From sequence record OQ708376.1: a stretch of 64,000 bases of DNA. One strand, given 5' to 3'. The stretch is from Escherichia phage vB_EcoM_CRJP21. A program made the translations under genes and the position numbers. Within the stretch, counting starts at the first letter, position 1, and the number at the start of each line of letters is the position of its first letter. Below are positions 10,036 to 62,554 of this stretch, in pieces. The notes under the pieces were generated by a model that worked only from the letters and a program-made list of their open reading frames with translations, made no database searches and was not told where the DNA came from.

Positions 10036-10227
10036 ATGTTGATTTATCAAAGTGATAATATTCGTGTTATGCAGCATCCCTACTTACAAATCTTTGATGT
10101 GCAGCAGTATATGGAAGGTGATGACCCAAGAACCTATGGTCGTAAGTATGATTACTTCACTGTAAAGCAGTGTAAAAATATTAACGAAGTACGACAATTA
10201 GTTCAAGAACTTCAAAACAAAGGTTGA
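10036..10227 (+). CDS. hypothetical protein (63 aa)
   Basis: ORF track 9982-10227; ATG 10036 after AAGGA. Confidence 0.45.
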   Translation: MLIYQSDNIRVMQHPYLQIFDVQQYMEGDDPRTYGRKYDYFTVKQCKNINEVRQLVQELQNKG

Positions 10228-10256
10228 CTTCGGTCAGCCTTTTTTGTTATAATTCT
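10221..10256 (+). terminator. bifunctional terminator/promoter element (GGTTGAC-TTCG-GTCAGCC + T-run; -35 TTGACT in stem, TATAAT downstream)
   Basis: 8 bp stem with UUCG loop and T5; TTGACT-N18-TATAAT. Confidence 0.7.
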
Positions 10257-10281
10257 CTTAATAAATTAGAGGATTTTAATT

Positions 10282-10722
10282 ATGTATGTATATCGTTTTG
10301 AACTTAAATTCAGTTACATTGAACCTAACTTAGAACCTGCACGAACTGTAGGTCCGTTTGCACGGTATTCAACCAGATACAGTACTAAAAATGGATTTGA
10401 CCGTTTGCTTATGACTACACCTTCTCAATTCCAACCTGAACCAACTGAGGATGGGATCTATTCAATCAAAAGTGGATGGGTATTTGGCTGTCAAAGTTTG
10501 AAAGATTTGTTCAGATTCTTCACTATGGACTTGGGTAAATTGCATCGTGCTGGGTTTGCTATATCTGTATATGAAGTTCCAGACCACCATGTAGACATTG
10601 GTCGTAATCAGGTTCAGTACTATTGCGGTAGTGCTAAATTAGTTCGTATCATGTCAGTTAAGGAAGCAAAGGATGAGTTCCGACAAAGTAAAAGAGAAAC
10701 ACATGAGGTAATATATGGATAA
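10282..10722 (+). CDS. hypothetical protein (146 aa)
   Basis: GAGGAT RBS. Confidence 0.55.
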   Translation: MYVYRFELKFSYIEPNLEPARTVGPFARYSTRYSTKNGFDRLLMTTPSQFQPEPTEDGIYSIKSGWVFGCQSLKDLFRFFTMDLGKLHRAGFAISVYEVPDHHVDIGRNQVQYYCGSAKLVRIMSVKEAKDEFRQSKRETHEVIYG

Positions 10723-11059
10723 AACTCAAATAGAATTAAAGAAATTTGTTTCATTCTATCTTCCTGATGACCCACGTAATTCACAAAAAGATATTGAATA
10801 TTATAATATCCTATCTAAACAGTTAATGAGAAAGTTTCAACAGTGTTTAACTATATTCAATACAGATGGAAGACGTAGATACCGAATCGTTTCAATGAAT
10901 GATGAAAACGCAAATTTCTTTGATTACGATGTAGTTTTTAGAGCATATAATGATGATCGTATAAAATTAAATTATGATCAAATTATACTTGACCTGAATG
11001 TTATATGTGTTATAATCACTCACGTAGCCGAACTTAATGGTTTTAAAGAATGGTATTGA
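10715..11059 (+). CDS. hypothetical protein (114 aa)
   Basis: overlapping start. Confidence 0.5.
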   Translation: MDKTQIELKKFVSFYLPDDPRNSQKDIEYYNILSKQLMRKFQQCLTIFNTDGRRRYRIVSMNDENANFFDYDVVFRAYNDDRIKLNYDQIILDLNVICVIITHVAELNGFKEWY

Positions 11060-11073
11060 ATAGAGGATAACAT

Positions 11074-11340
11074 ATGAAGCTTAAATTACAATATAATGGA
11101 TTTACTTTACGTAATGATACTGAATTTATTAATCGTTCTCCTGGTGCTGAACTGTTTTTACGAGAGATGAACATTCCTTTCATCATTACTACAGTGGGCG
11201 ACCGTGAAGTTCTACAATATGCAGAGCATCCGATTATTGATGTTCCTTGGTACTCTGAGCATATGTACATGGATATGGCACGTCGCTACAACTGTAAGTT
11301 CGTAGTTGAAGGTGATAAAATTACAGTCGAATTTAAATAA
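11074..11340 (+). CDS. hypothetical protein (88 aa)
   Basis: GAGGAT RBS. Confidence 0.5.
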   Translation: MKLKLQYNGFTLRNDTEFINRSPGAELFLREMNIPFIITTVGDREVLQYAEHPIIDVPWYSEHMYMDMARRYNCKFVVEGDKITVEFK

Positions 11341-11352
11341 GGTAAATTAAAA

Positions 11353-11646
11353 ATGATCAGTACTTCAGTTAATGAAAGCATCGTCGCTGACGTAGAAATG
11401 GTTAAAGAATGTGCAGATGAAACTCTTCGTGATATGTACATTAATGATTTAATTACTGAATACGGTAGTCGTGGTGTACACGAATTTATTCGTTTAAGTG
11501 GAGAGTTGATGAAAAATCGAATTCGTATGAAGCTTAACGTACATCCAAAAGCATGGGCATTTACATTAAAATACGCAGAAGATATTGTTAATTTGCGTCG
11601 AACTGAAGTATATGAACGTTTGCACAATGGTATGTTAGATAAATGA
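11353..11646 (+). CDS. hypothetical protein (97 aa)
   Basis: ORF in track. Confidence 0.5.
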   Translation: MISTSVNESIVADVEMVKECADETLRDMYINDLITEYGSRGVHEFIRLSGELMKNRIRMKLNVHPKAWAFTLKYAEDIVNLRRTEVYERLHNGMLDK

Positions 11647-11655
11647 TTGTAAAAT

Positions 11656-11685
11656 AGGAATTCTTAAATGAATTCCTTTTTGTTT
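11656..11685 (+). terminator. intrinsic terminator (AGGAATTC-N-GAATTCCT + T-run)
   Basis: perfect inverted repeat followed by TTTTTGTTT. Confidence 0.65.
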
Positions 11686-11698
11686 ATAAGGTATAGTA

Positions 11699-11920
11699 AT
11701 GAAATATATAGTACTTGTACTGATATTATTCAGTACTGTTGTAAGTGCTAAACAAAAAGAATATGTTAAATGTATAAATTATGAAGAGAAATATGTTGAA
11801 ACATATAAAAAAAGTATAATTAAAAACGTTTCGATTACTAACAGAGCAACAATCATTGTACTTAAAAATGGGTTAATTATGCTATATAAACCACACGTTA
11901 AATGTGAAATTATTAATTGA
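11699..11920 (+). CDS. secreted protein (signal peptide)
   Basis: N-terminus MKYIVLVLILFSTVVSA. Confidence 0.5.
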   Translation: MKYIVLVLILFSTVVSAKQKEYVKCINYEEKYVETYKKSIIKNVSITNRATIIVLKNGLIMLYKPHVKCEIIN

Positions 11921-11927
11921 GGAAATT

Positions 11928-12500
11928 ATGAATCGTAAAGGTCGTTTTAAAGTATCAAAAAAGAACAAAAGTTCTAGGTTTAAACCTATTGTTTTAACAG
12001 TTAAATCTAACAAAGATTTAACTGCACTTAGTAAAAAGATAATTTCATCTAAGATTGAAGTATCATACGTAAATTCATTAAAATATATGAATGTCAAACC
12101 ACTGGACCAACTCATTTCACTTATATTTGAACGTAATGATTTTGAGATATCAGTAGATGATTATAGAGCCTATAATGCTGGTTTCATTAATGTTACTTGT
12201 AATAAAAAACTAACTGAGTTGGAAAATTTGTCATGTATAATAAATCTAGATAAAGGTGTTGTGAAGTACCATTTTGTACATTTCACTAATATCAATAATG
12301 GAATGGGTGTACAATCCAGACCTATAGTGCCTACGTGTGATGTTACTAAATTAGCAAAGCTCAATGATGAAGAATATTTTCAAGAAAGCATTGTAACTGA
12401 GCATTTAGATGATATAATAGCTACTTACAAAGAATGCATATGGGTGTTGAATGCTATAAAACCTAAATTGTGTTTAATGAATATTGTTCGTGATTTATGA
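11928..12500 (+). CDS. hypothetical protein (190 aa)
   Basis: ORF track 11904-12500; ATG 11928 after GAGGAAAT. Confidence 0.5.
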   Translation: MNRKGRFKVSKKNKSSRFKPIVLTVKSNKDLTALSKKIISSKIEVSYVNSLKYMNVKPLDQLISLIFERNDFEISVDDYRAYNAGFINVTCNKKLTELENLSCIINLDKGVVKYHFVHFTNINNGMGVQSRPIVPTCDVTKLAKLNDEEYFQESIVTEHLDDIIATYKECIWVLNAIKPKLCLMNIVRDL

Positions 12501-12513
12501 ATGGGGAATCGTA

Positions 12514-13072: not shown

Positions 13073-13456
13073 ATGGTTGATAAATGGAATAAGAAAGATC
13101 CATCACATGATGTTGATATTTCTGGTCTAGACAATGCACATAAGCACAAGTATCTAGATTCACTAGGTCTTCTAAAACCAGACCAAAGTCTTGCACATGA
13201 TCGTCCATCCCGTGAAAAAGCATTTAGCCTAGAATCACTAGGTCATGAGCTTAATCGTGTGTTTGAGGATCACCCAATCTATGTACGTGATATTATCGAG
13301 AAACTTAAAGTAACTCCTAAAGAGCACTTTAAAGCAACTGTACACTCTGCATTCCGTGCATTGCATGATTCTCTAAAGAAAACTCACAATCTTCGTAAAA
13401 TTCATGATGAAATCGTGAATGCAATCGAAAGTGAAAAACATAAGTTCAAGAAGTAA
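13073..13456 (+). CDS. hypothetical protein (127 aa); shares LDSLGLL motif with 13727-15214
   Basis: AGGAG RBS. Confidence 0.55.
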   Translation: MVDKWNKKDPSHDVDISGLDNAHKHKYLDSLGLLKPDQSLAHDRPSREKAFSLESLGHELNRVFEDHPIYVRDIIEKLKVTPKEHFKATVHSAFRALHDSLKKTHNLRKIHDEIVNAIESEKHKFKK

Positions 13457-13461: not shown

Positions 13462-13496
13462 AGGGGTTGACTAAGGTCAGCCCTTTGTTGTATCAT
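13462..13496 (+). terminator. bifunctional terminator/promoter element (variant loop TAAG)
   Basis: GGGGTTGAC-TAAG-GTCAGCCC + T-run; TATCAT downstream. Confidence 0.6.
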
Positions 13497-13646: not shown

Positions 13647-13680
13647 AGGTTGACTTCGGTCAGCCTTTTCTTTATACTAT
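13647..13680 (+). terminator. bifunctional terminator/promoter element
   Basis: GGTTGAC-TTCG-GTCAGCC + T-run; TATACT downstream. Confidence 0.65.
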
Positions 13681-13726
13681 AAATATAGTCATAGAGAAAA
13701 AAATGAAATCTATGGAGAGAAATCAA

Positions 13727-15214
13727 ATGCCAAGTAATTTTACTGATAAAAATGGTGGTAACATGGCTGGTCACTCTGATAAATGGAGTGAACGCAACCG
13801 CCGTCCAAATAGTTATCAAGCAGGTCAAGGTTCACGTGGGTCACGTAACCAAGGAACTGGTCTAGCTGGTAAAGCAAACGCAGAAGCAGGTGAAGTTAAG
13901 AGTACTGAGAACATGACTGAGCTAGAAAAGCTACGTTATGTTAACTCATTAGGTCTTCTTAACGCAACACAAAAACAACGCCTTGCTGATATGGAACGTG
14001 CTGAGAAAGAACAAGCAGTTCCTAAAGAAGAACCAAAAGCAGAAGTACCTAAAGCTGCTAACCCTGTTAAAGAGTTATCAGATAACTTAGGTAAGATCTT
14101 TGCTAACAAACCACAGTTGATTCAGGGTATTGTCAAAGCACTACAGGCAGTTCCTAAAGAAGAACTCAAAGGTAAAGCACAAGCTGTACTTGATGTAATG
14201 AAAGGTAATAAGAGCACTGAACCAACTGAAGTATTCAGTACTATCATGCGTGCACTTGAAGGTACACACAAAGAAGATTCCAAAGAACCTGAACAGGGTG
14301 AAGCAAGTCTTGATGGTATTCTTAAAACTTTTGATAATATTGGTAAAGCAGACCGTGCTAATGCCCAGCAAGTCAAGAATGTACTGGCTAAACTTGAAAA
14401 CCGTTTAGAAGGTAAAGACAATAAGGTTAAGCTCGTATCAGATGCAGTTAACAGTGCACTTAAATCTTATGTACAAGGTGAGAAAAGTCGCTTCGTAACA
14501 GCTATGGATGCTGCATTCAACACTATGAAAAAGTATGAAGCAGAACATGGTGAGAAGGTAACACCAGATGGTTATCTAAAGCGTGCAGATGAAGAGGGTG
14601 CAGTTGAACAGAAAGATGTTGAGCCTGAGCAAGAAGAAATACCTGATACCGTTGATATGGATGGATACATTCATCGTCCTGAGATGGAAGAGTTTGGGTC
14701 AGATAAAGAAGGTTTTGAACATGCAATGGCAGTATATAAAGCATTAGTTAAAAATCCAGATTATGCTAACCGTTTTGTTGACGAGTTTGATAGTGCATGG
14801 AATAACTACAAAGAGAAAGGTTATGACTTCCCTGCTGAAGCTGCATTCTTTGAACTTGGTAAACTATTAGCTAAACATGGAATTGACGTTGGTTCATCTG
14901 ATTCCGAAGGTATGGAAGAAGAACATCTTGAAATGACCGATAAATCAATTCATGAACTTCAAAAGCTAATGATGTGGATATCCGAGATTGGCAAAAAAGC
15001 AGGTGCTGATCGTAAAAGTATCAACAAAAACATTAGTTGGATTAAAGATAATGTTGGTAACAATGCTCGTAAACTTCAAAAGGCGTGGGCTGATTTAGTA
15101 AATGGTGCAGATGATGTTGACATTGAATCACCAGAAGCATATGAGTATGCACTAACTACACTTGATAACTCATTCAAAGAGTACGACAGTGGTGTTGGAA
15201 AGGATAAAAAATAA
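13727..15214 (+). CDS. large acidic Lys/Glu-rich protein (about 495 aa), unknown function
   Basis: ORF track 13703-15214; ATG 13727 after GGAGAG; low-complexity acidic composition. Confidence 0.55.
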   Translation: MPSNFTDKNGGNMAGHSDKWSERNRRPNSYQAGQGSRGSRNQGTGLAGKANAEAGEVKSTENMTELEKLRYVNSLGLLNATQKQRLADMERAEKEQAVPKEEPKAEVPKAANPVKELSDNLGKIFANKPQLIQGIVKALQAVPKEELKGKAQAVLDVMKGNKSTEPTEVFSTIMRALEGTHKEDSKEPEQGEASLDGILKTFDNIGKADRANAQQVKNVLAKLENRLEGKDNKVKLVSDAVNSALKSYVQGEKSRFVTAMDAAFNTMKKYEAEHGEKVTPDGYLKRADEEGAVEQKDVEPEQEEIPDTVDMDGYIHRPEMEEFGSDKEGFEHAMAVYKALVKNPDYANRFVDEFDSAWNNYKEKGYDFPAEAAFFELGKLLAKHGIDVGSSDSEGMEEEHLEMTDKSIHELQKLMMWISEIGKKAGADRKSINKNISWIKDNVGNNARKLQKAWADLVNGADDVDIESPEAYEYALTTLDNSFKEYDSGVGKDKK

Positions 15215-15223: not shown

Positions 15224-15260
15224 AGGTTGACTTCGGTCAACCTTTTTTTGTAAATATAAA
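15224..15260 (+). terminator. bifunctional terminator/promoter element (perfect stem GGTTGAC/GTCAACC)
   Basis: UUCG-loop hairpin + T7. Confidence 0.7.
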
Positions 15261-16307: not shown

Positions 16308-16340
16308 AGGGTTGACTTCGGTCAGCCTTTTTTGTTATGA
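16308..16340 (+). terminator. bifunctional terminator/promoter element
   Basis: GGGTTGAC-TTCG-GTCAGCC + T6. Confidence 0.7.
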
Positions 16341-16369
16341 TGTTGATATTAACTACAGAGGATAAAGTA

Positions 16370-17011
16370 ATGACTAAGCAAGAAATATTCAAAACTTTAA
16401 TTGACATTTTGCGTCCATCAAAAACTCGTTGTGCGATGGAGTTTGATATTCCTTATGCTGAACGCGTAATCTTTCCACAAGTTAAAGCTGCTGGACTTAC
16501 TTTGCTTGGAATGGGGATGTACTCTGTAGTAGTTGAACATAAAAACTATCCTGGACGAGCATTTAAAGTAACCACTTCACGCTGGGATGGTTTTCGTGCT
16601 TATGCAAAGTACTGCATTGAAAACGCAGGAACCAAGTTTCTTCCAGTGATCTACAGTGCCAACGAACAAGGAAACTTTGGATGGTATGAGATGGACAAGT
16701 ACTATCCTATAATTAAACAAAAAAATAATTATGATGACTTTGTTAGTACTAAAATTGGAGATTTGTATTCGTATGCACATGCTGGTCAGTACGCAACTTC
16801 AGTGAATGATATGCGTGGAAATTCTGAAGAGATTGCTATTGCAACGGTCGCTGCTAACATCATGAAAGAGTTTCACGGGCGTTTTGTACCAGACATTCAT
16901 TCAAGTAATGTGATGATGGATAAAGATGGGAATGTATTCATTACTGATCCTCTTTCGTGTGATGTGCGTAGAGAAATACCAATTACTGAAGAAGATCCAG
17001 TTTTTTATTGA
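16370..17011 (+). CDS. hypothetical protein with possible kinase/phosphotransferase-like motif (DIHSSNVMMDKDGNVFITD)
   Basis: ORF track 16337-17011; ATG 16370 after GAGGA; motif-level resemblance only. Confidence 0.5.
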   Translation: MTKQEIFKTLIDILRPSKTRCAMEFDIPYAERVIFPQVKAAGLTLLGMGMYSVVVEHKNYPGRAFKVTTSRWDGFRAYAKYCIENAGTKFLPVIYSANEQGNFGWYEMDKYYPIIKQKNNYDDFVSTKIGDLYSYAHAGQYATSVNDMRGNSEEIAIATVAANIMKEFHGRFVPDIHSSNVMMDKDGNVFITDPLSCDVRREIPITEEDPVFY

Positions 17012-20802: not shown

Positions 20803-20836
20803 AGGGTTGACTTCGGTCAGCCCTTTTTGCTATAAT
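20803..20836 (+). terminator. bifunctional terminator/promoter element
   Basis: GGGTTGAC-TTCG-GTCAGCCC + T5; TTGACT-N18-TATAAT. Confidence 0.7.
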
Positions 20837-20864: not shown

Positions 20865-21380
20865 ATGACACGCATTAACTTAGTACACGTTAAAGAACTT
20901 GCTGACCAACATCTGATGGCTGAATATCGTGAACTCCCACGTGTATTTGGTGCTGTACAAAAACACGTTCAAGCACGTAAGCGTGTACGTGATTTCAAAA
21001 TTAACAGTACTTATCTGTTAGGTTCAGGTCATGTGACATTCTTTTACGACAAGTTGCTGTACTTACAGAAGCGTCATATCGATATTGTTAACGAATGTTT
21101 GCGTCGTGGTATGAAGATTCAAAACACTGAAGTAAACGACATTAGCGGATTCCCTGCTGAGTTTTGTAATGACTACGTACCATCGGAGTCAGAGATTAAA
21201 ATGTCTCGTGACCGTTTGATTGAGAAGCTCCAGATGAAGCCTACGTGGTATAAGTTTACTGATGTTGAATGTCCACAGTACGTTAAAGATATGCAGAACG
21301 TAAGTAGTAAGAACGAATCTAGTACTGATATGTTCGACGAAATTGAAGAACAAATCAAAGATGAAATGAATAATTATTAA
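20865..21380 (+). CDS. denV: pyrimidine dimer DNA glycosylase (T4 endonuclease V homolog) with C-terminal extension
   Basis: N-terminus [34 protein letters not shown]...[10 protein letters not shown]...PTWYK closely matches T4 DenV as I recall it; AGAGGAT RBS. Confidence 0.85.
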
Positions 21381-21385: not shown

Positions 21386-21405
21386 AGGGTTGACTTCGGT
21401 TACAC
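21386..21405 (+). terminator. degenerate copy of terminator/promoter element
   Basis: GGGTTGACTTCGGTTAC, stem disrupted. Confidence 0.3.
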
Positions 21406-21719: not shown

Positions 21720-22079
21720 ATGGCATCTTTAAGTGAAATCGCAGAATACAACCCACTAACAATCTCAACAATTCAACGTACAAAAACTTTTTATTTCCGT
21801 CCTTCTGATGGATGGAAACGTGGAATGAATGGTGACTATCGAGTACTGGAAGATTCACTAATCGAGCGTATCAACTCTGAACTACAGAAGTATGAAGGTG
21901 TTAAAGTTGTGCGTTCAACTTCTCGTTATTTTGAGTACTACATTGAGTCTTCAACTGTAAATGAAAACTCATCATTCTCGGTGGACAACACTGATATTCT
22001 TCGTAATGCAGTTGGTCTGTTATGCAACATTGCAGAAGAAATGGGCTTAACTATTACTACTATGAGTGAATTAGAATAA
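21720..22079 (+). CDS. hypothetical protein (119 aa)
   Basis: GAGGAAT RBS. Confidence 0.55.
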   Translation: MASLSEIAEYNPLTISTIQRTKTFYFRPSDGWKRGMNGDYRVLEDSLIERINSELQKYEGVKVVRSTSRYFEYYIESSTVNENSSFSVDNTDILRNAVGLLCNIAEEMGLTITTMSELE

Positions 22080-22083
22080 CATA

Positions 22084-22118
22084 AAGGGTTGACTTCGGTC
22101 AGCCCTTTTTGCTATAAT
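22084..22118 (+). terminator. bifunctional terminator/promoter element
   Basis: GGGTTGAC-TTCG-GTCAGCCC + T5; TATAAT downstream. Confidence 0.7.
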
Positions 22119-22144
22119 ACTTTCATCAACAGAAGAGGTAACAC

Positions 22145-22375
22145 ATGAAACTATCTTTTATACGATTGGCTGAATTCTTTGGTACTGATGTAATTACTCT
22201 ACAACAAATAGCAGATAATACATCATTAACTACGCAAGAAGTACTTGACTTAGATGTAATTCAGTGCAATAATACTTCAATCGATTACAAAGAAGGTCTT
22301 GTCGAAAAAGATAAGATTCAGGCTAAGATTAATGGTGCTGGACGGGTTCAGTACTGGAAAGCTATATTAAGTTGA
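22145..22375 (+). CDS. hypothetical protein (76 aa)
   Basis: AGAGG RBS. Confidence 0.5.
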   Translation: MKLSFIRLAEFFGTDVITLQQIADNTSLTTQEVLDLDVIQCNNTSIDYKEGLVEKDKIQAKINGAGRVQYWKAILS

Positions 22376-22390
22376 ATTGGAGATTTGTAT

Positions 22391-24034
22391 ATGATTGGAA
22401 GTTTTTGTTTTATTGACAAAAAAAAACGTTCAAAACCTTATATTATTGCTGAAAAGGTAAGAAATATATTTTCTAATATAAAAGAAATAAATTGTGACTT
22501 TATTGGTTTTGATATTAACTCAATACTTGAATGGGAAGGGGAAAAAACATATATTTTATATGAAATAAATGGTATAACAAAAAAGATTAGATATGATATT
22601 CTAAGACAACATTCTAATAATGGTTCTTTTCCGAATAAAAAACATTTTAATTCTGAAGAATTAAAAAAATGTAGTAAAGAAAAAAAAATATTTGATTATG
22701 ATAAGTCAATGAGATTGTCATCTTATTATTCAACACCAAATATAATAACGGTTGGTGATAAAGATATATCATATTTTACTGCTCTTCAGTTAGAAGCTAT
22801 ATCTCCATATATGCATTTTAACTCTATCACACCCACTGAATATTCGAAAAAAATATTGAATAAGATAAAAGAGTTTAAAAATGTTGAAGTTATTTTTTAT
22901 GGATTTTATGTATCATACTATTCAGAATGGAATAACAAAAAAACAAAAATAGTAATATCTTTTAATGAATATGTTACCTATCATATGACAATTGATGATT
23001 TTTTATATAGTTTAGATAGTAATATAACAGATATTCCTCGTTTTAATTATAATAATGAAAATTTTATTTATCGTATGATGTTTTTTGGATATGCTAATAA
23101 TCATACTTTTGATTTATCAAATTTAAACATTAAAAATTCCAAATCAATAATTAGAAAAAAATGTAAAGTATGTAAAAGTACTGATGTAGTGAGTATTGCA
23201 CAACATATTAGGAATCCTAGTTGCTCTGTATGTTTTTATAATACTGAAAAATTTAATTATAATGAATATGAAGCATGTGAAGAAGTTGTTAATGAGTATA
23301 AGGGATTTCATTATATGAATCATGATAATATAAAATTCATTCCAATTGGATGTTCTTACACACCATTTGAATGGTATGAAATAATAAAATATAAGGGTGG
23401 TGATTCTTTTATTGGTTTTTATATTAACAGTTCTTCAGAGTTTGACGGTAATAAGACGAAAATTTTATTAGATATTAATGGGGTAATATTAACTCCAACA
23501 ATTCTCAATTTTCTTGAGAGATACGAAAATATGTATAAAGACCTAATAAATCCAACAATATCTTTGGAAATTATGTCTAATAATAAATACAAACCCTCGG
23601 TTGCACGTCACAAAAGAATCTTTAGTCAACCTATTTTAACATTAGGAGGGATTATTTCATCAAATGATTTATCATCATATGAAATGATAGTCGCATTGTT
23701 CCTAATCAAAAATAATATTGATTTTCATTTTCAATTCAGAACTGAAGAATCAATAGAATTTATGGGAAATAGAAGATATGATTTTTATGTACCAGATTAT
23801 AATCTAATCATTGAAGTTGATGGTGCACAGCATACAAACTATTGCCCAATATTTCATAGAAGTGAAGAGTGCTTACAAAAACAAATGGAAATTGATGAAA
23901 TAAAACTTGAATTTGCAAAAGAATCAGGATATAATTTTGCTCGCATTAACTATGATGAATCTATTGTTGATGAACTTATTAATGTGATTAAAAAAATATC
24001 ATCTGAAAATAATCAGATTATTAGAACTTATTAA
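22391..24034 (+). CDS. Asn/Lys-rich protein with C-terminal PD-(D/E)xK-like nuclease motif
   Basis: ORF track 22385-24034; C-terminal RRYDFYVPDYNLIIEVDGAQH resembles Vsr/DUF559-type fold; motif-level only. Confidence 0.45.
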   Translation: MIGSFCFIDKKKRSKPYIIAEKVRNIFSNIKEINCDFIGFDINSILEWEGEKTYILYEINGITKKIRYDILRQHSNNGSFPNKKHFNSEELKKCSKEKKIFDYDKSMRLSSYYSTPNIITVGDKDISYFTALQLEAISPYMHFNSITPTEYSKKILNKIKEFKNVEVIFYGFYVSYYSEWNNKKTKIVISFNEYVTYHMTIDDFLYSLDSNITDIPRFNYNNENFIYRMMFFGYANNHTFDLSNLNIKNSKSIIRKKCKVCKSTDVVSIAQHIRNPSCSVCFYNTEKFNYNEYEACEEVVNEYKGFHYMNHDNIKFIPIGCSYTPFEWYEIIKYKGGDSFIGFYINSSSEFDGNKTKILLDINGVILTPTILNFLERYENMYKDLINPTISLEIMSNNKYKPSVARHKRIFSQPILTLGGIISSNDLSSYEMIVALFLIKNNIDFHFQFRTEESIEFMGNRRYDFYVPDYNLIIEVDGAQHTNYCPIFHRSEECLQKQMEIDEIKLEFAKESGYNFARINYDESIVDELINVIKKISSENNQIIRTY

Positions 24035-24042
24035 TAATAAAA

Positions 24043-24076
24043 AGGGTTGACTTCGGTCGGCCCTTTTTGCTATAAT
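24043..24076 (+). terminator. bifunctional terminator/promoter element
   Basis: GGGTTGAC-TTCG-GTCGGCCC + T5; TATAAT downstream. Confidence 0.7.
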
Positions 24077-27767: not shown

Positions 27768-28430
27768 ATGATGAAATCAAAATTAGGTTTGTTTTATAAA
27801 AATTATTTTGTTAAACAACGTAAATTTATAAAAAAATATTTCTCTGGAGAGAAGTCTAGTCCTATAATCTTTAAAAGACCAAGTTATAATACTTACTTAG
27901 CTGGTGCTAAACAGTCTAAGAAATTTATTACTCTTTTACATAAAAACAACATTAAAGCTTCTTATGTTGAAACGAGAAGAAACTCATCAATAACTCCGGG
28001 TGATTTTATTGAGTACGGATGTTTCAATATTAAGTACAATGATAATACATACTTTATGGATATTGATTGTAATACATCCAATCTTTTTAACATTGTAGTA
28101 AATCCATTAAAACAATATAATGTTTATGGTGATTCTATTATCAAATTAATCAAAAACAAAGATGGCTTTGATTTTGAAATAAATGTTTTAGATGATAATT
28201 TTGACGAAGTACCCGTAAACCCTGAAATCTGTGATATTTTAAACAGTTTAAAAGGTAGTACCTACAATATATCATCTGATTTAATGTTTCAGTACTCATT
28301 AATCCATAAAGATATTGAAAAGTATATTGAATGCTCCAGAATTTTGAATTTTCTCTATGATGAATTTAAAAAGAGTTCTAAAATAACTGCATACACTTTG
28401 TACAATATTCCTAAAATGGTGAATCTTTGA
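27768..28430 (+). CDS. hypothetical protein (220 aa)
   Basis: AAGGAG RBS; converges with minus-strand array. Confidence 0.55.
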   Translation: MMKSKLGLFYKNYFVKQRKFIKKYFSGEKSSPIIFKRPSYNTYLAGAKQSKKFITLLHKNNIKASYVETRRNSSITPGDFIEYGCFNIKYNDNTYFMDIDCNTSNLFNIVVNPLKQYNVYGDSIIKLIKNKDGFDFEINVLDDNFDEVPVNPEICDILNSLKGSTYNISSDLMFQYSLIHKDIEKYIECSRILNFLYDEFKKSSKITAYTLYNIPKMVNL

Positions 28431-40792: not shown

Positions 40793-40972
40793 ATGCAACA
40801 ATTCTATAGAGAACGTATAACCATAAAAGACCGTTTCATGTACGACACCTTCGTGAAGTACTACAAACTAGGAACAAAAAGTACTAAAAATATTAATCTC
40901 AATAGCTGCATTTATGCTGTACTAACACAAGATAATCCCTACAGGGAAATCCTCGCCCTGGCATCTATATAA
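40793..40972 (+). CDS. small protein, tandem paralog family S (59 aa, below track cutoff)
   Basis: AAGGAAT RBS; MQQFYRER...REILALASI. Confidence 0.45.
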   Translation: MQQFYRERITIKDRFMYDTFVKYYKLGTKSTKNINLNSCIYAVLTQDNPYREILALASI

Positions 40973-40982
40973 AGGAAACCAA

Positions 40983-41654: not shown

Positions 41655-41847
41655 AGAATTCTACATAAAAGAACTACCAAAGTTTCTACAAGGAAATCTA
41701 TTAGAAGATGAACCTCGCGGTATTGACTGTATATATGAAGCTGATTACTTCCGTACATGTACTGAACAAGTACTTAATGAAGAAGCTAATGAAAACAATT
41801 ATCAAGTACAACTGTACCACACCCTGTACCTTGCGTTCCAGTACTAA
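41647..41847 (+). CDS. small protein, tandem paralog family S
   Basis: start at MYKEFYIKELP (41647), overlapping upstream stop. Confidence 0.55.
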   Translation: MYKEFYIKELPKFLQGNLLEDEPRGIDCIYEADYFRTCTEQVLNEEANENNYQVQLYHTLYLAFQY

Positions 41848-41856
41848 GGATAATAT

Positions 41857-42042
41857 ATGTATAAAGAATACTACATAGAGAAACTCCCAATGTATCTCCA
41901 ACACCTTGTACCAAACGTTGCATTGGGTATAGAAAAAAACTACGAAAAAGACTACTTCATTCAGTGCACTAAATCCTCGATATATATTGAAGACTATAAT
42001 CGAGTACTGTATCATATCCTTTTACTAATATATAGGTACTAA
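41857..42042 (+). CDS. small protein, tandem paralog family S
   Basis: MYKEYYIEKLP...LLIYRY. Confidence 0.55.
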   Translation: MYKEYYIEKLPMYLQHLVPNVALGIEKNYEKDYFIQCTKSSIYIEDYNRVLYHILLLIYRY

Positions 42043-42043
42043 T

Positions 42044-42226
42044 ATGCACAAAGAATACTACACACAATTTCTCCCCAGCATTTTTGAACACTACGCCAGA
42101 TATAAAGTCCCTATGGATAACGATTTGGCAGTACTGGGATTCAATAACTGCATAGAACGAAGTATAGAAAATAGTAGTAGTTATGACCAGCTATATAACA
42201 CTATCCTACTTATATTCAGGTACTAA
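42044..42226 (+). CDS. small protein, tandem paralog family S
   Basis: MHKEYYTQFLP...LLIFRY. Confidence 0.55.
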   Translation: MHKEYYTQFLPSIFEHYARYKVPMDNDLAVLGFNNCIERSIENSSSYDQLYNTILLIFRY

Positions 42227-42227
42227 C

Positions 42228-42416
42228 ATGCATAAAGAATACTACACAAAACATTTCCCAATGTACCTCAGAACTAATCTATTAGATAAACCTCGCGGTA
42301 TCAATGCACAAAACGATAAAGTGTACTTTACTATGTGCACTAAAGCATGTATACTAGATTTTGACAGCTATCATCGAGTACTGTATCATACCCTGTACCT
42401 AGCTTTCGTATTCTAA
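42228..42416 (+). CDS. small protein, tandem paralog family S
   Basis: start at MHKEYYTKHFP (42228), 1 nt after upstream stop. Confidence 0.55.
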   Translation: MHKEYYTKHFPMYLRTNLLDKPRGINAQNDKVYFTMCTKACILDFDSYHRVLYHTLYLAFVF

Positions 42417-42425
42417 GAGAACAAT

Positions 42426-42611
42426 ATGCATAAAGAATTCTACTTAAGCCATCTCGATCTAAACTCCCAAATGCTTATACCACAAATCCCAATAGATATC
42501 AAGGATAAGAAAAATACCGAACAATTCATTTACCATACACAGTGTGCGATCACCCCAAATTACATTCCATATGAATTGTACTACATTCTCGCCCTAATAT
42601 ATAGGTACTAA
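42426..42611 (+). CDS. small protein, tandem paralog family S
   Basis: MHKEFYLSHL...ALIYRY. Confidence 0.55.
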   Translation: MHKEFYLSHLDLNSQMLIPQIPIDIKDKKNTEQFIYHTQCAITPNYIPYELYYILALIYRY

Positions 42612-42612
42612 T

Positions 42613-42798
42613 ATGCATAGAGAATACTACACACAATTTGTTAAAGGGAACTACAAACATGCCGTACCCAGAACCCCTTTAAATTTTCATGACCCAAGTA
42701 CTATATTCTTGTTCCATGACGCAATACGTACAGTACTCAATACTAAAGATGAAGATGTGCAGTACGTATTCTTACTATTACTTATATACAGACACTAA
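42613..42798 (+). CDS. small protein, tandem paralog family S
   Basis: MHREYYTQFV...LLIYRH. Confidence 0.55.
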   Translation: MHREYYTQFVKGNYKHAVPRTPLNFHDPSTIFLFHDAIRTVLNTKDEDVQYVFLLLLIYRH

Positions 42799-42803
42799 CT
42801 AAT

Positions 42804-43013
42804 ATGAATAAAGAACATAAAGAATTCTACTCCAAATACATAAGCCCCTCAGAACAAATGTTTCTAAGGACTACTCCACCTTTAAGTACTAATACATTTT
42901 TCGGCAGAGTATGCTACAATAATTGTATTCAAATGACTTTAAACGCAAACGAAGATGGTAACAGTACTAACCTGTACTCAGGTATCATAGGTATACTATT
43001 CCTGTATGAATAA
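42804..43013 (+). CDS. small protein, tandem paralog family S
   Basis: MNKEHKEFYSKY...LFLYE. Confidence 0.55.
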   Translation: MNKEHKEFYSKYISPSEQMFLRTTPPLSTNTFFGRVCYNNCIQMTLNANEDGNSTNLYSGIIGILFLYE

Positions 43014-43194
43014 TTACAAAGACTTCTATTTGAATACACTACCTACTGTACTTTCTCTAAGTGCTCAATGTAAAATCCCGCTGGATAATGCTTACGCCAG
43101 ATATAGCTATTCCATAACTGTTAATCGATGTATAGAGAATCATTGCAGTACTAACCAGTACTATAACATAATCCTACTTATATTCAGGTACTAA
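43006..43194 (+). CDS. small protein, tandem paralog family S
   Basis: MNNYKDFY...LLIFRY. Confidence 0.55.
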   Translation: MNNYKDFYLNTLPTVLSLSAQCKIPLDNAYARYSYSITVNRCIENHCSTNQYYNIILLIFRY

Positions 43195-43195
43195 T

Positions 43196-43378
43196 ATGAA
43201 TAAAGAACATAAAGAATTCTATATACGAAAACTAACATTCGTCCCCGTAAGAATATATAAAGAATGCGACCCAAGATTATACCTATGGCACTTCAATGAG
43301 TGCATAAAAGATTCTATATACCCTAAGAACTACAAAGAACAATTGTGCTCAGTACTAACACTAGTACTATCATATTAA
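43196..43378 (+). CDS. small protein, tandem paralog family S
   Basis: MNKEHKEFYIRKL. Confidence 0.55.
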   Translation: MNKEHKEFYIRKLTFVPVRIYKECDPRLYLWHFNECIKDSIYPKNYKEQLCSVLTLVLSY

Positions 43379-43393
43379 TTAATAGAGAATACT

Positions 43394-43585
43394 ATGTATA
43401 AAAACTTCTATATAAGTAAACTAAAAGAAAATGAACAAGTATGGATTAGATCTATAATAGTACTGGCATTTAATAGATATGCATTTAACAGATGTACCGA
43501 GATTGCTATAGACCCTTATAATATTAAAGAGAATGTACAGTATAATCAGTACTACTATATCTTAATGCTTATATATAGGAAGTAA
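43394..43585 (+). CDS. small protein, tandem paralog family S (last member)
   Basis: MYKNFYISKL...LIYRK. Confidence 0.5.
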   Translation: MYKNFYISKLKENEQVWIRSIIVLAFNRYAFNRCTEIAIDPYNIKENVQYNQYYYILMLIYRK

Positions 43586-44570
43586 TTAAACACAAGTAGA
43601 CAGGGGAAGCTCCTAGTGAACAACCTTTATGTACAGGCGAATTGTTAAAATTCAGCCTGGACAAATGCGATCACTAGGATTCTCCCCAGGCTAAACCCCG
43701 TAATCATAGGTAGTCATAAGTAATCATATATAAACATTTATATGAGCACCGTAGAATCACAGAATGATTATATATGATTCAGTACTGATTAGTATAGACA
43801 AGAATTCTCAAGAATGCACGGGAAGGATTCAGTACTGATATGCCACTAAGTAGGCAGAGGAAGTCTGCCGTACTTTGTAGTTTCCAAGCTCCTTTTCCAT
43901 TTTTCAAATTACATCAAATGTAATCAAAAGTAATCACGCAATGATTAGTACTGAATTATTACTTTCACCTTAATTACAATTACCCTTTTACCCTTCGGGG
44001 TAAAATTCAATTACCCCTTGAGGCTCCAGCAAAAAGTTGGTTAGTACTCCATCCTAAATCTCGATCCTAAAAATTTTGGAGTACCTATGAAATAAAAGTT
44101 GGATCTTCGAAAGTTGAAATTTACGTTGGGACGTTTATGATTTGTGGGATATAATGATGTTTGTAGACGGGTAGTTCTCAAGAATATCAGTACTGAAAGA
44201 TGAAAGAAAGTTATTGACTTTATGATTCAGTACTGTATAATGTTCTACATAGGGTGATGAGTTGCTGCGAACAATTCATTTACTCTACCTCCTGTCGTGA
44301 GACAGTACAGAAAAGATAGTTCCTCCTGTGGTGGTACATCTTTTTGAACCTCATATGAAAATCGTAATAACAGTACTGATATTAACAGAATGGTGTCAGT
44401 ACTGATTTTAATCTAAAGCATTATGCCACCAGCACAAGCTGGTGGATTCCCTCTAACAGTATTCAGTACTACATGATGGTCTTCATCCTCCTAGGGTAAC
44501 ATAGTGAGGGCTATGATGGCAGTACTGAATACTCCCTTTCAAAAGATAGATCTATGGTATAGTACTGACG

Positions 44571-44759
44571 GATTTTGGGCGTAGTTACCCTGGATGGATT
44601 TTGGGCGTAGATATGTCTAGCCCTCCAGAAGTCTGGAAGTAAAGATGGCTATCCATCTAGACGGCTAAACGGCTAGATTTCTGGATGGCTGGATGGCTAG
44701 ACGTTTGGACGGCTAAACGGCTAGATGGTTACACGTCTGGAAGTATAGACGGCTAAATC
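44571..44759. repeat. iteron-like short direct repeat cluster (GGATTTTGGGCGTAG x2; ACGGCTAAACGGCTAGAT x2; GGATGGCT x2; GTCTGGAAGTA x2)
   Basis: direct repeats read in ORF-free region. Confidence 0.7.
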
Positions 44760-46952: not shown

Positions 46953-47202
46953 GCAGTTTACAAATCTTTACAATTGCCGGTATTGACTTATTTTGTCAGT
47001 ACTGGCATAATGTATTCATTGGCAGATAAGCCGTAGCCCATAGGGTGCGGGAGTGTATCTATAGAAAAATTAGTTTAGTATAGTTACAATTGTGCACCCG
47101 GTGGGTTAGCTGTTGTCATGGGGTATATTATACCAGTACTTGATAATGCTGTCAATACTTTTTTTTTACTATTCAGTACTGAAAACTATTTTTAAAAAGT
47201 AC

Positions 47203-48563: not shown

Positions 48564-48593
48564 GCGGGGAGATAATAACTCCCCGTTACTTTT
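48564..48593 (+). terminator. intrinsic terminator (CGGGGAG-N-CTCCCCG + T-run)
   Basis: hairpin + TTACTTTTT. Confidence 0.6.
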
Positions 48594-48727
48594 TCAGTAC
48601 TGAATCATTTAATAGACGGATCTCGGCACCCGGTGGGTTAGTGACTGTTTCGTCTTGATGTAGTAATTATGCCAGTACTGGATGCACTTGTCAACAATTA
48701 TTTTCCAAATACTTTTTATTAAAATAC

Positions 48728-52963: not shown

Positions 52964-52996
52964 GTGGTTGACTTCGGTCAGCCATTTTGTTATTAT
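52964..52996 (+). terminator. bifunctional terminator/promoter element (variant)
   Basis: GGTTGAC-TTCG-GTCAGCC; TATTAT downstream. Confidence 0.55.
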
Positions 52997-56990: not shown

Positions 56991-57026
56991 GGGATTGACT
57001 CCGGTCAGTCCCTTTGCTATTATATA
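56991..57026 (+). terminator. bifunctional terminator/promoter element (GGGATTGAC-TCCG-GTCAGTCCC)
   Basis: hairpin; TTGACT-N17-TATTAT; identical copies at 60261 and 62519. Confidence 0.6.
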
Positions 57027-59387: not shown

Positions 59388-59630
59388 ATGATTACTTTAG
59401 AAAAACGTATCAAAGAAACTACATCGCTGGTGGAACTGTTAACAGTACTGAAATGCCGTACTACTCGGTTTAGTACACCGGACTTTATTAATATGGTTGA
59501 TGTTAATGGTCGCTATCGTATCACGGTCGAACAAGGAGCGGCGAAAGTATTCAGTACTAAAAACACTAAGGAAGTGATTCACGCTGTAAGTGTTAAAAAA
59601 GTAGTTGCCATTGATAGTAAAGTACTGTAA
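59388..59630 (+). CDS. hypothetical protein (80 aa)
   Basis: preceded by near-duplicate of the 59055-59110 intergenic. Confidence 0.5.
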   Translation: MITLEKRIKETTSLVELLTVLKCRTTRFSTPDFINMVDVNGRYRITVEQGAAKVFSTKNTKEVIHAVSVKKVVAIDSKVL

Positions 59631-59661
59631 GATAGTTTCATTAACTCAAGGAGAACATGCA

Positions 59662-60246
59662 ATGCGTAATTATACTAAATTCATCCGTACCCTGTCAGAA
59701 ATGGAAACCAACAAAGAGATCCTTTCAGCTTGTCGGTTAGCTGGTCTGGAGATCATCGGTGCGGGTTCTTCCCGTATTGTATTCGCTTTAAATGATCGGT
59801 TAGTGATTAAGGTCGCGAATTGTGATGCGGGTGTAGAACAAAATGAAACTGAATGTAAGGTATGGAATTTTTTAGATTATGACCGCCCTCAATTGAAACA
59901 GTACTTTGCAAAGGTGCATATGCATTTATGCGATCCTGATAATATGTTTATCGTTATGGATCGGTTGAGTACTGCAAGTAAAGGCAGTGTAAAGCACGTA
60001 AACGCGTGCAATGAATTAAAGTACAATATTAAACGTAATGCCATTGAACGCCAGCACCGCTTTGCTGATGCACTACAACACGTTGATGATACATTATCAA
60101 CACTAACGATAAGAGATATCAGAAAACAGAATATCGGCCAGGATCGTAATGGCCTTATTAAAGTACTTGATTACGGTTTAACCCGCAATATCTGGAATCA
60201 GTACTATAAAAAGCGTGATGTAGAAGCAAGTAAGGTAACACGATAA
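59662..60246 (+). CDS. small protein-kinase-like protein (G-loop GAGSSRIV, VIKV, RDIRKQN, DYG)
   Basis: ORF track 59605-60246; ATG 59662 after AAGGAG; kinase subdomain motifs in canonical order. Confidence 0.45.
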   Translation: MRNYTKFIRTLSEMETNKEILSACRLAGLEIIGAGSSRIVFALNDRLVIKVANCDAGVEQNETECKVWNFLDYDRPQLKQYFAKVHMHLCDPDNMFIVMDRLSTASKGSVKHVNACNELKYNIKRNAIERQHRFADALQHVDDTLSTLTIRDIRKQNIGQDRNGLIKVLDYGLTRNIWNQYYKKRDVEASKVTR

Positions 60247-60260: not shown

Positions 60261-60296
60261 GGGATTGACTCCGGTCAGTCCCTTTGCTATTATATA
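60261..60296 (+). terminator. bifunctional terminator/promoter element
   Basis: GGGATTGAC-TCCG-GTCAGTCCC; TATTAT downstream. Confidence 0.6.
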
Positions 60297-61302: not shown

Positions 61303-61320
61303 CAGTCCAGGAGATACACC

Positions 61321-61584
61321 ATGAACACTATCGAAATCACTATCAATGCACACGTATACGACAACGTAGTACTGCAAACTACTATGACCGCTAATGATAC
61401 CAGTACTTTGCGGAATACCGTTGTAAGTGCTGTATGTGCTGCAATCGGTGATGTAGCCCTGGAAAATGCAGAACACATCAACAACGGTTTCACTATGTGC
61501 AAACGTGATAACGCAAAACATATCATCTTAGAAGGTTACGGCGGTGTAGAATATAATCTTTATATGAAAAAAGTACTTGCATAA
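61321..61584 (+). CDS. hypothetical protein (87 aa)
   Basis: AGGAGAT RBS. Confidence 0.55.
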   Translation: MNTIEITINAHVYDNVVLQTTMTANDTSTLRNTVVSAVCAAIGDVALENAEHINNGFTMCKRDNAKHIILEGYGGVEYNLYMKKVLA

Positions 61585-61632
61585 TAACTAAAACAAAGTA
61601 TAATGTTTTGCATAGGGGGAGATATCCTCCCC
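61576..61632 (+). promoter_or_regulatory. promoter TTGCAT..TATAAT + 5' stem-loop GGGGGAGA-TAT-CCTCCCCC
   Basis: overlaps 3' end of upstream gene. Confidence 0.55.
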
Positions 61633-61651
61633 CACTAAAAGGAGTAATAAA

Positions 61652-61876
61652 ATGGCTAACTTTGATGAACTGATGCGGGAAGTAGCTAACCTGGCAGAAG
61701 AGAAGAAATCATTCGATTCTATCTATAACACCGCTCACCGTGATTCAGTACTGGCATGTACTCAGGATCAAAAAGATGAACTAATCGCCACCTATCATGA
61801 AGCATGGAAGTACTACCGACAATGGGAGAAAGAAGAAAGTGAGTCTACCATTGACGGCCTCAATAATCTAATCTAA
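61652..61876 (+). CDS. hypothetical protein (74 aa)
   Basis: AAGGAGT RBS. Confidence 0.55.
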   Translation: MANFDELMREVANLAEEKKSFDSIYNTAHRDSVLACTQDQKDELIATYHEAWKYYRQWEKEESESTIDGLNNLI

Positions 61877-61887
61877 AAGTTTTATTT

Positions 61888-61923
61888 CAGTACTATTGAC
61901 ATAGCTTGATAGTACTGATGTAA
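61888..61923 (+). promoter_or_regulatory. palindrome-containing promoter (AGTACTATTGACATAGCTTGATAGTACT)
   Basis: same architecture as 51227. Confidence 0.5.
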
Positions 61924-61952
61924 TAACTTTACTAACTACAAGGGGAAACATA

Positions 61953-62210
61953 ATGGAACAGTTCACACAATATCGGGTAAATCCTCAAGCTATGGCCTAC
62001 GTAGAAGACCATAAAACATTACCAGTACTGCAACCAGTTAAAGGCCATATCTATCGTGCTATGTCGTGGAGTACTGCACAGGATGGATATAAAACCGTTG
62101 CCGTGGGTATGTATTGCGGGAATGGTGAATGGTTTGATCCAAATAATCCGGTAGCCATTGACAGTACTGAAAAAATGAAATGGGCCGACTACATCGAAGA
62201 TATTTCATAA
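61953..62210 (+). CDS. hypothetical protein (85 aa)
   Basis: AAGGGGAAAC RBS. Confidence 0.5.
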   Translation: MEQFTQYRVNPQAMAYVEDHKTLPVLQPVKGHIYRAMSWSTAQDGYKTVAVGMYCGNGEWFDPNNPVAIDSTEKMKWADYIEDIS

Positions 62211-62216
62211 AACTAT

Positions 62217-62280
62217 TTGACAGTACTAACCAGTAATGTATAATGTTTTACATAGAGCGGGGGAATAGTTCTCCCGTCAA
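62217..62280 (+). promoter_or_regulatory. promoter TTGACA-N16-TATAAT + 5' stem-loop
   Basis: cassette architecture. Confidence 0.6.
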
Positions 62281-62299
62281 TAGTTTGGAGTAAAACATT

Positions 62300-62500
62300 A
62301 TGTCTATCGCTATCGCCCTGGTTGAAGTACTGAAAGAAGCTAAAGCCAACCTTATCGATGTACAGATTAAGGAATTACAAAATGGTTTAATCGGCTGTAC
62401 TTGTACCGCTGGTGGAGCGGCAGACTATCGGGAATTCGAATCACTTGAATCGATGGTCCGTTATCTTACCATGATCGTAGAAGATTGGAGAATCATCTAA
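62300..62500 (+). CDS. hypothetical protein (66 aa)
   Basis: GGAGTAAAAC RBS. Confidence 0.5.
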   Translation: MSIAIALVEVLKEAKANLIDVQIKELQNGLIGCTCTAGGAADYREFESLESMVRYLTMIVEDWRII

Positions 62501-62518
62501 CAAAAAAGAATAAAAAAA

Positions 62519-62554
62519 GGGATTGACTCCGGTCAGTCCCTTTGCTATTATATA
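62519..62554 (+). terminator. bifunctional terminator/promoter element
   Basis: GGGATTGAC-TCCG-GTCAGTCCC; TATTAT downstream. Confidence 0.6.

Follow-up and report, generated by a model that had tools for sequence, protein, structure and literature searches.

A recurrent intergenic hairpin of Escherichia phage vB_EcoM_CRJP21 as a probable terminator–promoter composite

The window and its intergenic repeat

A stretch of 64,000 bp from the genome of Escherichia phage vB_EcoM_CRJP21 (record OQ708376.1), referred to here at its full length as the window, was found to contain an intergenic repeat of ~35–45 bp in which a hairpin and T-run overlap the motifs of a sigma-70-like promoter. Each copy probably combines an intrinsic terminator and a promoter in a compact unit of the type known from phages nt-1 and KVP40 as the promoter-early stem-loop (PeSL). 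The first 28 kb of the window carry small genes on the plus strand, including those for a phage sigma factor, a protein kinase and a pyrimidine-dimer glycosylase. The majority of the genes flanking the element are hypothetical, with Pfam recognising only the glycosylase and the sigma factor.

By megablast, the window belongs to the genus Asteriusvirus, which comprises jumbo Escherichia coli phages of the 121Q/PBECO4/G17 type, and matches phage 121Q at 99% identity across positions 101,473–110,841 of the latter; the coverage of the window by its relatives is just 35–82%. Collinearity with 121Q extends over the whole window (position 10221 aligns with 121Q 98,696, and 52965 with 121Q 144,923), which therefore represents one genome. 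Alignment with phage fEgEco12 is likewise collinear. The initial annotation had argued for a single genome from the presence of the same element in two compositional halves, a view with which this collinearity agrees. The change in composition at ~44 kb is explained by a terminal-repeat boundary. A direct terminal repeat of ~21 kb has been established for fEgEco12 (PMC13070987), and its start (fEgEco12 353,741) aligns to window 43837–43849, with a break in homology at 43837. The window from ~43,849 onward is thus the start of the terminal repeat, which is packed with small open reading frames (ORFs). Besides this start, the window takes in a region of early genes.

A search with the 20-nt core pattern GGGTTGACTTCGGTCAGCCC, allowing up to three mismatches, returned 12 matches, all on the plus strand (Table 1). 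No match was obtained in 100 dinucleotide-preserving shuffles, and chance repeats were rejected as an explanation. With the looser core TTGACTNNGGTCA a thirteenth site appeared at 21390, which is without a 3′ arm, T-run and −10 hexamer and does not fold. This leaves 12 intact copies and one relic, so that of the "at least 13 copies" originally proposed, 12 stand and the last is a degraded remnant, which is also present in phages G17, 121Q, ELP-22 and UE-S1. The consensus put forward at that time, AAAGGGTTGAC-TTCG-GTCAGCCC-TTTTTGCTATAAT, occurs exactly at 20804 and 22086, and the variant given for the second half, GGGATTGAC-TCCG-GTCAGTCCC followed by TATTAT, occurs exactly at 56992, 60262 and 62520.

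Placement of the copies is regular. Each intact copy begins no more than ~20 nt after the upstream stop codon and has the orientation of its flanking genes (12/12), while no copies occur in the minus-strand gene block of the window. An A-run lies upstream of every copy, and copies in the first half are followed by a Shine-Dalgarno sequence of the AGAGG type and an ATG. A mobile element resembling repetitive extragenic palindromes or miniature inverted-repeat transposable elements was also considered and was rejected, there being no terminal repeats and no target duplications.

Hairpin and promoter features of the element

A single hairpin of 9–14 pairs was predicted for each of the 12 copies, with energies of −13.4 to −20.4 kcal/mol and z-scores of −4.3 to −6.6. 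The loop is UUCG in eight copies, UCCG in three and UAAG in one; 11 of the 12 are thus cUNCGg tetraloops, whose closing pair is formed by the C of TTGAC and a G. The reverse strand folds ~6–8 kcal/mol worse (−12.7 and −13.2 kcal/mol), because the conserved U·G pair turns into C·A. The stem in first-half copies is followed mostly by four to seven T residues, with three at 13464 (CCCUUUGUUG).

A comparison set of 118 unique hairpins of the same design was assembled from fetched loci of related phages. Their loops belong to the UNCG family in 84 cases and to the GNRA family in seven, and the base opposite the first T of TTGAC is G in 105 hairpins and A in the other 13. Exact matches in IMG/VR numbered 62 for the wobble-containing 18-mer and five for the perfect palindrome. 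Covariation was seen in the outer pairs of the stem (94.8% of cells paired, with changes on both sides in 31 cells), and none of 500 shuffles reached the observed values; the covarying position carries G-C, A-U or U-A, and the variant has one extra A-U pair. ARNold called all eight first-half sites terminators in the G17 record, seven of them under the match at −13.5 to −17 kcal/mol, and the supplement of the paper on phage CBB lists such sites as terminators by the same program. Taken together, the fold, its strand asymmetry, the loops, the covariation and the T-run argue for a hairpin that acts in RNA transcribed from the plus strand. The description of the element as a canonical intrinsic terminator with a UUCG-type tetraloop and T-run accordingly holds for hairpin, loops and placement, but in second-half copies the U-tract is short.

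The arms can also be read as DNA, since GGTTGAC-N4-GTCAGCC is a near-palindrome overlapping the promoter, a typical operator position. It could then be the operator of a dimeric phage regulator or a cruciform, with the RNA hairpin being irrelevant. This is very improbable and was rejected. In 105 of the 118 copies the arms retain an asymmetry that pairs as G·U in RNA but would be a mismatch in a DNA palindrome; UNCG and GNRA, stable tetraloops specific to RNA, are over-represented among the loops; the stem shows covariation along with changes in length; and without exception the hairpin lies behind a stop codon and is followed by a T-run.

The 5′ arm of the hairpin is at the same time a −35 hexamer, TTGACT, in 12/12 copies. 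The spacer to the −10 hexamer measures 18 bp in seven copies (counting 15224) and 17 bp in five. The −10 sequences are TATAAT (four copies), TATTAT (four), TATGAT, TATACT and TATCAT (one each) and TAAATA at 15224. Eleven copies scored at least 10/12 in a sigma-70 scan, nine have the TGn motif of an extended −10, and a pyrimidine-CAT motif lies 7 nt after the −10 in seven. The spacing of 17–18 bp that had been claimed was thus found in all intact copies, with a good −10 in 11 of the 12. Among the 118 related hairpins, 111 have a −10 scoring at least 4/6 with the −35 and the 17- or 18-bp spacer kept, and TG precedes it in 83 of these 111.

It is conceivable, but distinctly unlikely, that the sites are terminators only and that their likeness to a promoter is a side effect of the A/T-rich context and a stem containing TTGAC. 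Public annotations and the CBB paper list the sites just as Rho-independent terminators, and a generic promoter scan of the A/T-rich first half found 103 promoters against 102.5 expected from shuffles, so that such a scan alone proves nothing. The identical hairpin with a T-run and without a −10 also exists in Acinetobacter, Exiguobacterium, Vibrio and Bacteroidetes. This bacterial occurrence served as the decisive control, in which the identical 18-mer hairpin GGTTGACTTCGGTCAGCC with a T-run was compared between phage contigs and one-per-species bacterial genomes. In bacteria the 18-mer occurred 50 times, 23 of them with a T-run, and a correctly spaced −10 was present in 3/23 and TGn in 0/23. 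Of 52 unique copies in phage contigs, 46 are followed by the T-run, 44 of these 46 have the spaced −10 (Fisher p = 3e-12 against the bacterial 3/23) and 38 have TGn. Also at odds with a plain terminator are the confinement of the spacer to 17 or 18 bp, the dominance of TATTAT or TATAAT, the conserved CAT start motif 7 nt after the −10, and the invariance of TTGAC in the stem, although any pairing sequence would terminate equally well. As the same hairpin in bacteria mostly lacks a spaced −10, the comparison indicates that the promoter half is selected and not incidental; bacteria appear to use the hairpin as a plain terminator, to which phages would have added a promoter in fixed register.

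The register itself leaves little freedom. TTGAC ends in C, so a −35 can close the very stable cUUCGg tetraloop, with the sixth base, T, being the first base of the loop. The remaining 3 nt of the loop, a 3′ arm of 8–9 nt, the T-run and TGn would then fill exactly 17–18 bp with few free positions, which makes an independent origin plausible. As to the conserved wobble, it may be guessed that a G opposite the first T is there to break a palindrome that would put TTGAC on the other strand too. A role of the G·U pair as a guard against an antisense promoter was judged plausible and not compelling, as just ~36% of copies would gain a −10-like hexamer at the right distance on the reverse strand had the palindrome been perfect.

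From these features we infer the following course of events at an element. In RNA arriving from upstream, AAAGGGUUGAC-UUCG-GUCAGCCCUUUUU would fold under a cUNCGg cap and, with the U-tract, end the transcript a few nucleotides past the stop codon. In the double-stranded DNA, the 5′ arm would serve as the −35 TTGACT, with the loop, 3′ arm and T-run filling the spacer of 17–18 bp and TGn plus TATAAT or TATTAT acting as an extended −10. RNA polymerase, most likely with host sigma-70, would restart ~7 nt past the −10, in many cases on the A of the conserved CAT, and the new transcript would have a leader of 25–35 nt before the ribosome-binding site of the next gene. Each gene or small gene group would thereby become an insulated, self-expressing unit. 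The proposal that termination and re-initiation are encoded in one element is, at the level of sequence, supported by placement, fold, promoter geometry and the bacterial control. For a 350-kb phage whose annotation is poor, it would chart part of the transcription units: eight insulated ones from 10 to 28 kb, with a further four elements in the terminal repeat. The ~12 sites per genome annotated as terminators in Rak2-like phages would probably be promoters too, and a terminator–promoter part of ~37 bp represents a design principle which could serve synthetic biology.

Kinship with promoter-early stem-loops and association with gene cassettes

PeSLs have been described in T4-like phages (Arbiol et al., 2010, PMC2839356; Comeau et al., 2014, PMC4122927). 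They lie in variable regions, where they mediate the shuffling of gene cassettes, and their stem-loop may overlap the −35, this being one of five published positions (PMC2839356). Reporter fusions with RB49/phi1 supported both promoter and terminator activity, and mini-circles arising by recombination between copies were shown for RB49/phi1 only (PMC2839356). The consensus in nt-1 and KVP40 is A3-4G3-loop-C3T3-4 with TTGYVH-N17-TAWWAT (PMC4122927). On direct inspection, the nt-1 intergenic region at 44.6 kb was found to contain AAAAAGGGTTGACAGATGTCAGCCCTTTTTTGTATCAT, a stem which is the same as that of the window element; at 44.6, 54.9 and 55.5 kb of nt-1, AAAGGG-TTGAC or TTGC, a loop and CCCTTTT are followed by TATCAT, TATTCT or TATTAT.

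Both systems have an intergenic sigma-70-like promoter with a stem-loop terminator and an A-rich 5′ flank, both are concentrated among small ORFs without known function and lie at the edges of indels that separate close relatives, and both include degraded copies. The promoter spacing, the stem-loop at the −35, the A/T-rich flank, the intergenic site, the variable region and the indel association by which a PeSL is known in sequence are all found in the window element, which also has the same stem and architecture as that of nt-1. It is most likely a PeSL of the nt-1/KVP40 subtype, real but not of a new kind, an identity which the initial annotation had missed. The window copies are set apart by an unusual uniformity, in that the 5′ arm invariably holds the −35 and the loop is of the cUNCGg type. 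The phage also differs, being an Asteriusvirus, that is, a Rak2-like jumbo phage outside the Straboviridae (NCBI taxonomy). The published range of PeSLs, T4-like myoviruses, describes where they have been found and is not a defining criterion; the portal and capsid trees of the CBB paper place Rak2-like phages among T4-like phages. In the literature and records on Rak2, 121Q and Asteriusvirus that were searched, the sites appear in terminator lists only or are absent, and never appear as promoters; no discussion of PeSLs in jumbo phages was found in the literature searched, and a full-text search for the core sequence returned one unrelated paper. What appears to be new is therefore the host lineage, with a PeSL-type element in a Rak2-like phage, which would extend the concept past T4-like phages to jumbo phages.

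The search of related genomes that had been suggested for the element found it to be widespread. The near-identical 37-mer AAAGGGTTGACTTCGGTCAGCCCTTTT(T)G-TATWAT occurs at 570 places in 172 phage records, its carriers being Rak2-like jumbo phages, KVP40-like Vibrio phages, Aeromonas T4-like phages, CR3-like phages (~150 kb), jumbo phages of Xanthomonas and Stenotrophomonas, and the Gram-positive Brochothrix phage A9. The 348.5-kb genome of 121Q has its exact copies exclusively in the interval from 98.7 to 153.8 kb. The bacterial terminators resemble the element in carrying the exact hairpin between an upstream A-run and a downstream T-run (Acinetobacter, Exiguobacterium, Vibrio, Colwellia and Bacteroidetes), and differ in that a spaced −10 is rare and TGn absent from them, so that they would terminate without restart.

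The region from 8 to 29 kb was aligned with seven relatives, namely G17, 121Q, PBECO4, ELP-22, UE-S1, JP4 and Salmonella phage SD-2_S15. Eight of the 26 unique indel boundaries lie within 35 bp of an element, while elements with this margin cover 4.2% of the region (binomial probability 8e-6; 1.8e-4 when the null admits gene junctions as the only sites). UE-S1 has a single element at three sites where the window has element, cassette and element, having lost, exactly between element pairs, one 37-codon ORF between 13464 and 13647, three ORFs between 15224 and 16309 and two between 22086 and 24044. Its deletion 13493|13634 has element 3 as right boundary, and deletion 15174|16293 ends on the right at element 5 (16309), with element 4 (15224) being a boundary too; the missing cassette 22145–24034 has element 7 at its left end. 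In SD-2_S15 a deletion ends exactly at the element at 15224, and both ELP-22 and JP4 have insertions directly 5′ of that at 20804. JP4 has an extra gene at 22086 with the junction within the hairpin loop and a degraded half-copy left behind. Homology resumes at 24031–24040, among the first bases of the element at 24044, in 7/7 relatives. Upstream of this point, the slot 22385–24034 holds a different gene in each phage, with homing or HNH endonucleases in several relatives. The window's own slot gene is an ORF of 549 amino acids that Pfam assigns to no family and that has no near match over its full length in phage records, and the G+C content falls to 26% here (2-kb window 22,001–24,000).

The elements thus mark the boundaries of gene cassettes which differ between relatives, an association that had not been noticed in the initial annotation. 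Repeats of ~45–65 bp could act as substrates of homologous recombination, by which the cassettes between them would be deleted, inserted or swapped, and this would help to explain why these regions differ so strongly between close relatives. Within the terminal repeat, indels relative to fEgEco12 sit at other repeated promoters.

Alternatively, the element might serve mainly in recombination or mobility as a module for the spread of cassettes, with the regulatory signals being its passengers. The coincidence of indel boundaries with elements, the JP4 junction within a hairpin loop, the degraded half-copies and the occurrence of a near-identical 37-mer in several unrelated lineages would fit such a module. 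Most copies, however, sit at conserved positions before conserved genes, as for the glycosylase gene in Asteriusvirus and CBB, the promoter and terminator features are visibly constrained, and no recombinase or target-site signature lies beside the element, which makes a mobility module very unlikely. A related proposal, regarded as doubtful, is that the module is a horizontally shared "universal docking site" and not a product of convergence, through which homologous recombination would move self-expressing cassettes between unrelated phage families. Such exchange would be integron-like without an integrase, with the conserved G·U asymmetry holding the module to one direction. The shared ATCGAAAC leader was rejected as proof of horizontal transfer, as several lineages carry the leader and it cannot separate descent from function.

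Returning to the terminator–promoter composite, several observations weigh against it or limit its reach. The copy at 15224 has only TAAATA and no convincing −10 hexamer, and because of this poor −10 it is probably mainly a terminator. The TCCG copies at 56992, 60262 and 62520 have UUU then GCUAUUAU in RNA (TTT then GCTATTAT in DNA), and 52965 has UUUU then GUUAUUAU (TTTT then GTTATTAT); with such short U-tracts the terminator feature is weakly developed in second-half copies, which are therefore probably weaker terminators. In the literature searched, no transcriptome of an element-carrying phage and no mapped 5′ or 3′ transcript ends were found. As regards the cassettes, 18 of the 26 indel boundaries lie away from elements, and the left boundary of the slot 22385–24034 is 290 bp off the nearest element, with homing endonucleases among its variable genes; recombination at elements is therefore not the sole source of variation.

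A further point concerns the sigma factor. The window encodes at 788..1753 a sigma-70-family protein with regions 2, 3 and 4 (Pfam), corresponding to gene 167 of 121Q, which could read the promoters in place of host sigma-70. The main alternative is that the composite is correct and its promoter is of a middle class read by this protein. In its favour, the first-half copies have an 18-bp spacer (17 bp at 13647) and lie outside the terminal repeat, among genes that are not necessarily immediate-early. Against it, the −35, TGn and −10 are near the E. coli sigma-70 consensus, and the same design is found in the terminal repeat amid dozens of consensus sigma-70 promoters. It is also found in CR3-like phages and Brochothrix A9, where the loci examined hold no sigma gene, the whole genomes being unchecked. 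On balance, use of the phage sigma factor seems unlikely and host sigma-70 is preferred.

Coordinates of the elements and other features of the window

Table 1. Copies of the element in the window, with predicted features. Spacer, distance between −35 and −10; energy, predicted folding energy in kcal/mol.
Feature	Position	Strand	Hairpin	Promoter	Energy	Context
Element 1	10221..10253	+	10221–10240	−35 TTGACT 10224–10229; −10 TATAAT 10248–10253; spacer 18; TGn	−14.1	After ORF 9982..10227; next ORF 10282..10722
Element 2	13464..13496	+	UAAG loop	−10 TATCAT	−18.3	After ORF 13073..13456; before 37-codon ORF (121Q gene 200), which UE-S1 is without
Element 3	13647..13678	+	UUCG loop	−10 TATACT; spacer 17	−13.4	Before ORF 13703..15214
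Element 4	15224..15256	+	Perfect palindrome (A for wobble G)	Poor −10 TAAATA; unlisted by promoter scan	−15.6	
Element 5	16309..16341	+	UUCG loop	−10 TATGAT; spacer 18; TGn	−17.5	Before protein kinase gene 16337..17011
Element 6	20804..20836	+	Exact consensus	−10 TATAAT; spacer 18; TGn; predicted transcription start A 20843	−20.4	Before pyrimidine-dimer glycosylase gene 20865..21380
Degraded copy	21387..21402	+	5′ arm and loop kept; 3′ arm and T-run lost	−10 lost	−1.7 (no better than shuffles)	
Element 7	22086..22118	+	Exact consensus	−10 TATAAT	−18.9	
Element 8	24044..24076	+	3′ arm GTCGGCCC	−10 TATAAT	−19.6	
Element 9	52965..52996	+	Stem base pair U-A	−10 TATTAT; spacer 17; TGn	−17.2	Terminal-repeat region; conserved leader with CCCAYNGGGTGC box downstream
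Element 10	56992..57023	+	GGGATTGAC-TCCG-GTCAGTCCC; short U-tract UUUGCUAUUAU	−10 TATTAT; spacer 17	−19.5	
Element 11	60262..60293	+	Variant as element 10		−19.5	After ORF 59605..60246
Element 12	62520..62551	+	Variant as element 10		−19.5	After ORF 62300..62500

At element 1, the TGA stop codon of the upstream ORF (10225–10227) is also the TGA within the −35 TTGACT; coding sequence, hairpin and promoter therefore overlap at this copy.

Beyond the plus-strand genes of the first 28 kb, about nine tandem ORFs of ~300–430 amino acids lie on the minus strand (28411–39432), annotated in 121Q as paralogous RCC1-like "DNA condensation" proteins. This block is followed by a tandem plus-strand array of ~20 ORFs of 60–77 amino acids (39535–43585), and no ORF of 60 amino acids or more is present at 43.6–44.9 kb. 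Just inside the terminal repeat, at 44627–44754, there are repeats with an 8-bp period (GGATGGCT, AGACGGCT and AAACGGCT). A scan of the window for tRNA genes found none, Rfam at its gathering threshold matched nothing in the whole window, and a permissive Rfam scan of 43.8–64 kb gave chance-level matches only.

Long terminal repeats with arrays of host-takeover genes are a feature of large virulent phages, as in the terminal redundancy of SPO1 and the pre-early region of T5. The second half of the window, as a promoter-rich terminal repeat packed with small ORFs, resembles these arrays in genomic context only; a promoter lodged in a terminator hairpin is not among their defining features. Between 44001 and 64000, at least 46 sigma-70-like promoters score 10/12 or more, 12 of them being perfect, and nearly all are on the plus strand. 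The largest class, with at least 17 copies, has the form AAAAAGTACTTGCA-N16-TATAAT-GTTTTACAT followed by a leader hairpin GGGGAGAA..TTCTCCCC, and it is at these repeats that the indels relative to fEgEco12 are located.

Another promoter class is characterised by the invariant box CCCAYNGGGTGC, which lies ~22–35 nt after the predicted start and always in the orientation of the promoter. It was located at 47037, 53023, 54689, 57045, 60320 and 62573 on the plus strand and at 48637, 47105 and 44950 on the minus strand. This class includes all four second-half hairpin elements and none of the first-half ones, and the box is also found downstream of the hairpin element in other Rak2-like contigs. 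Leaders with the box have a small 5′ hairpin in 16/24 cases, with varied stems and purine-rich loops, and RNAalifold found weak structure only and no covariation in them. The box could be a putative operator or a signal in the leader RNA, for example for antitermination. Two promoters of this class, at 46983 (+) and 47155 (−), face each other with predicted starts ~100 bp apart, and the minus-strand box promoter at 48694–48666 runs into a terminator hairpin at 48585–48565, giving a predicted RNA of ~95 nt. Both regions (46983–47155 and 48565–48694) are candidates for small or antisense RNAs.

The palindrome CAGTACTG was found 59 times against 0.9 expected, across the whole window (e.g., at 4151, 19052, 44228, 48274 and 60707). 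Its core AGTACT, with 280 occurrences against ~22 expected, is by far the commonest 6-bp palindrome of the window, and is present in all three reading frames and enriched intergenically. The excess of AGTACT is absent from other phages carrying the hairpin element and is common to all Rak2-like loci fetched, mostly at 24–43 per 10 kb (12 in one 8-kb sample). At 11 or more sites in the window, the palindrome adjoins a −10 hexamer as CAGTACTG-TATAAT.

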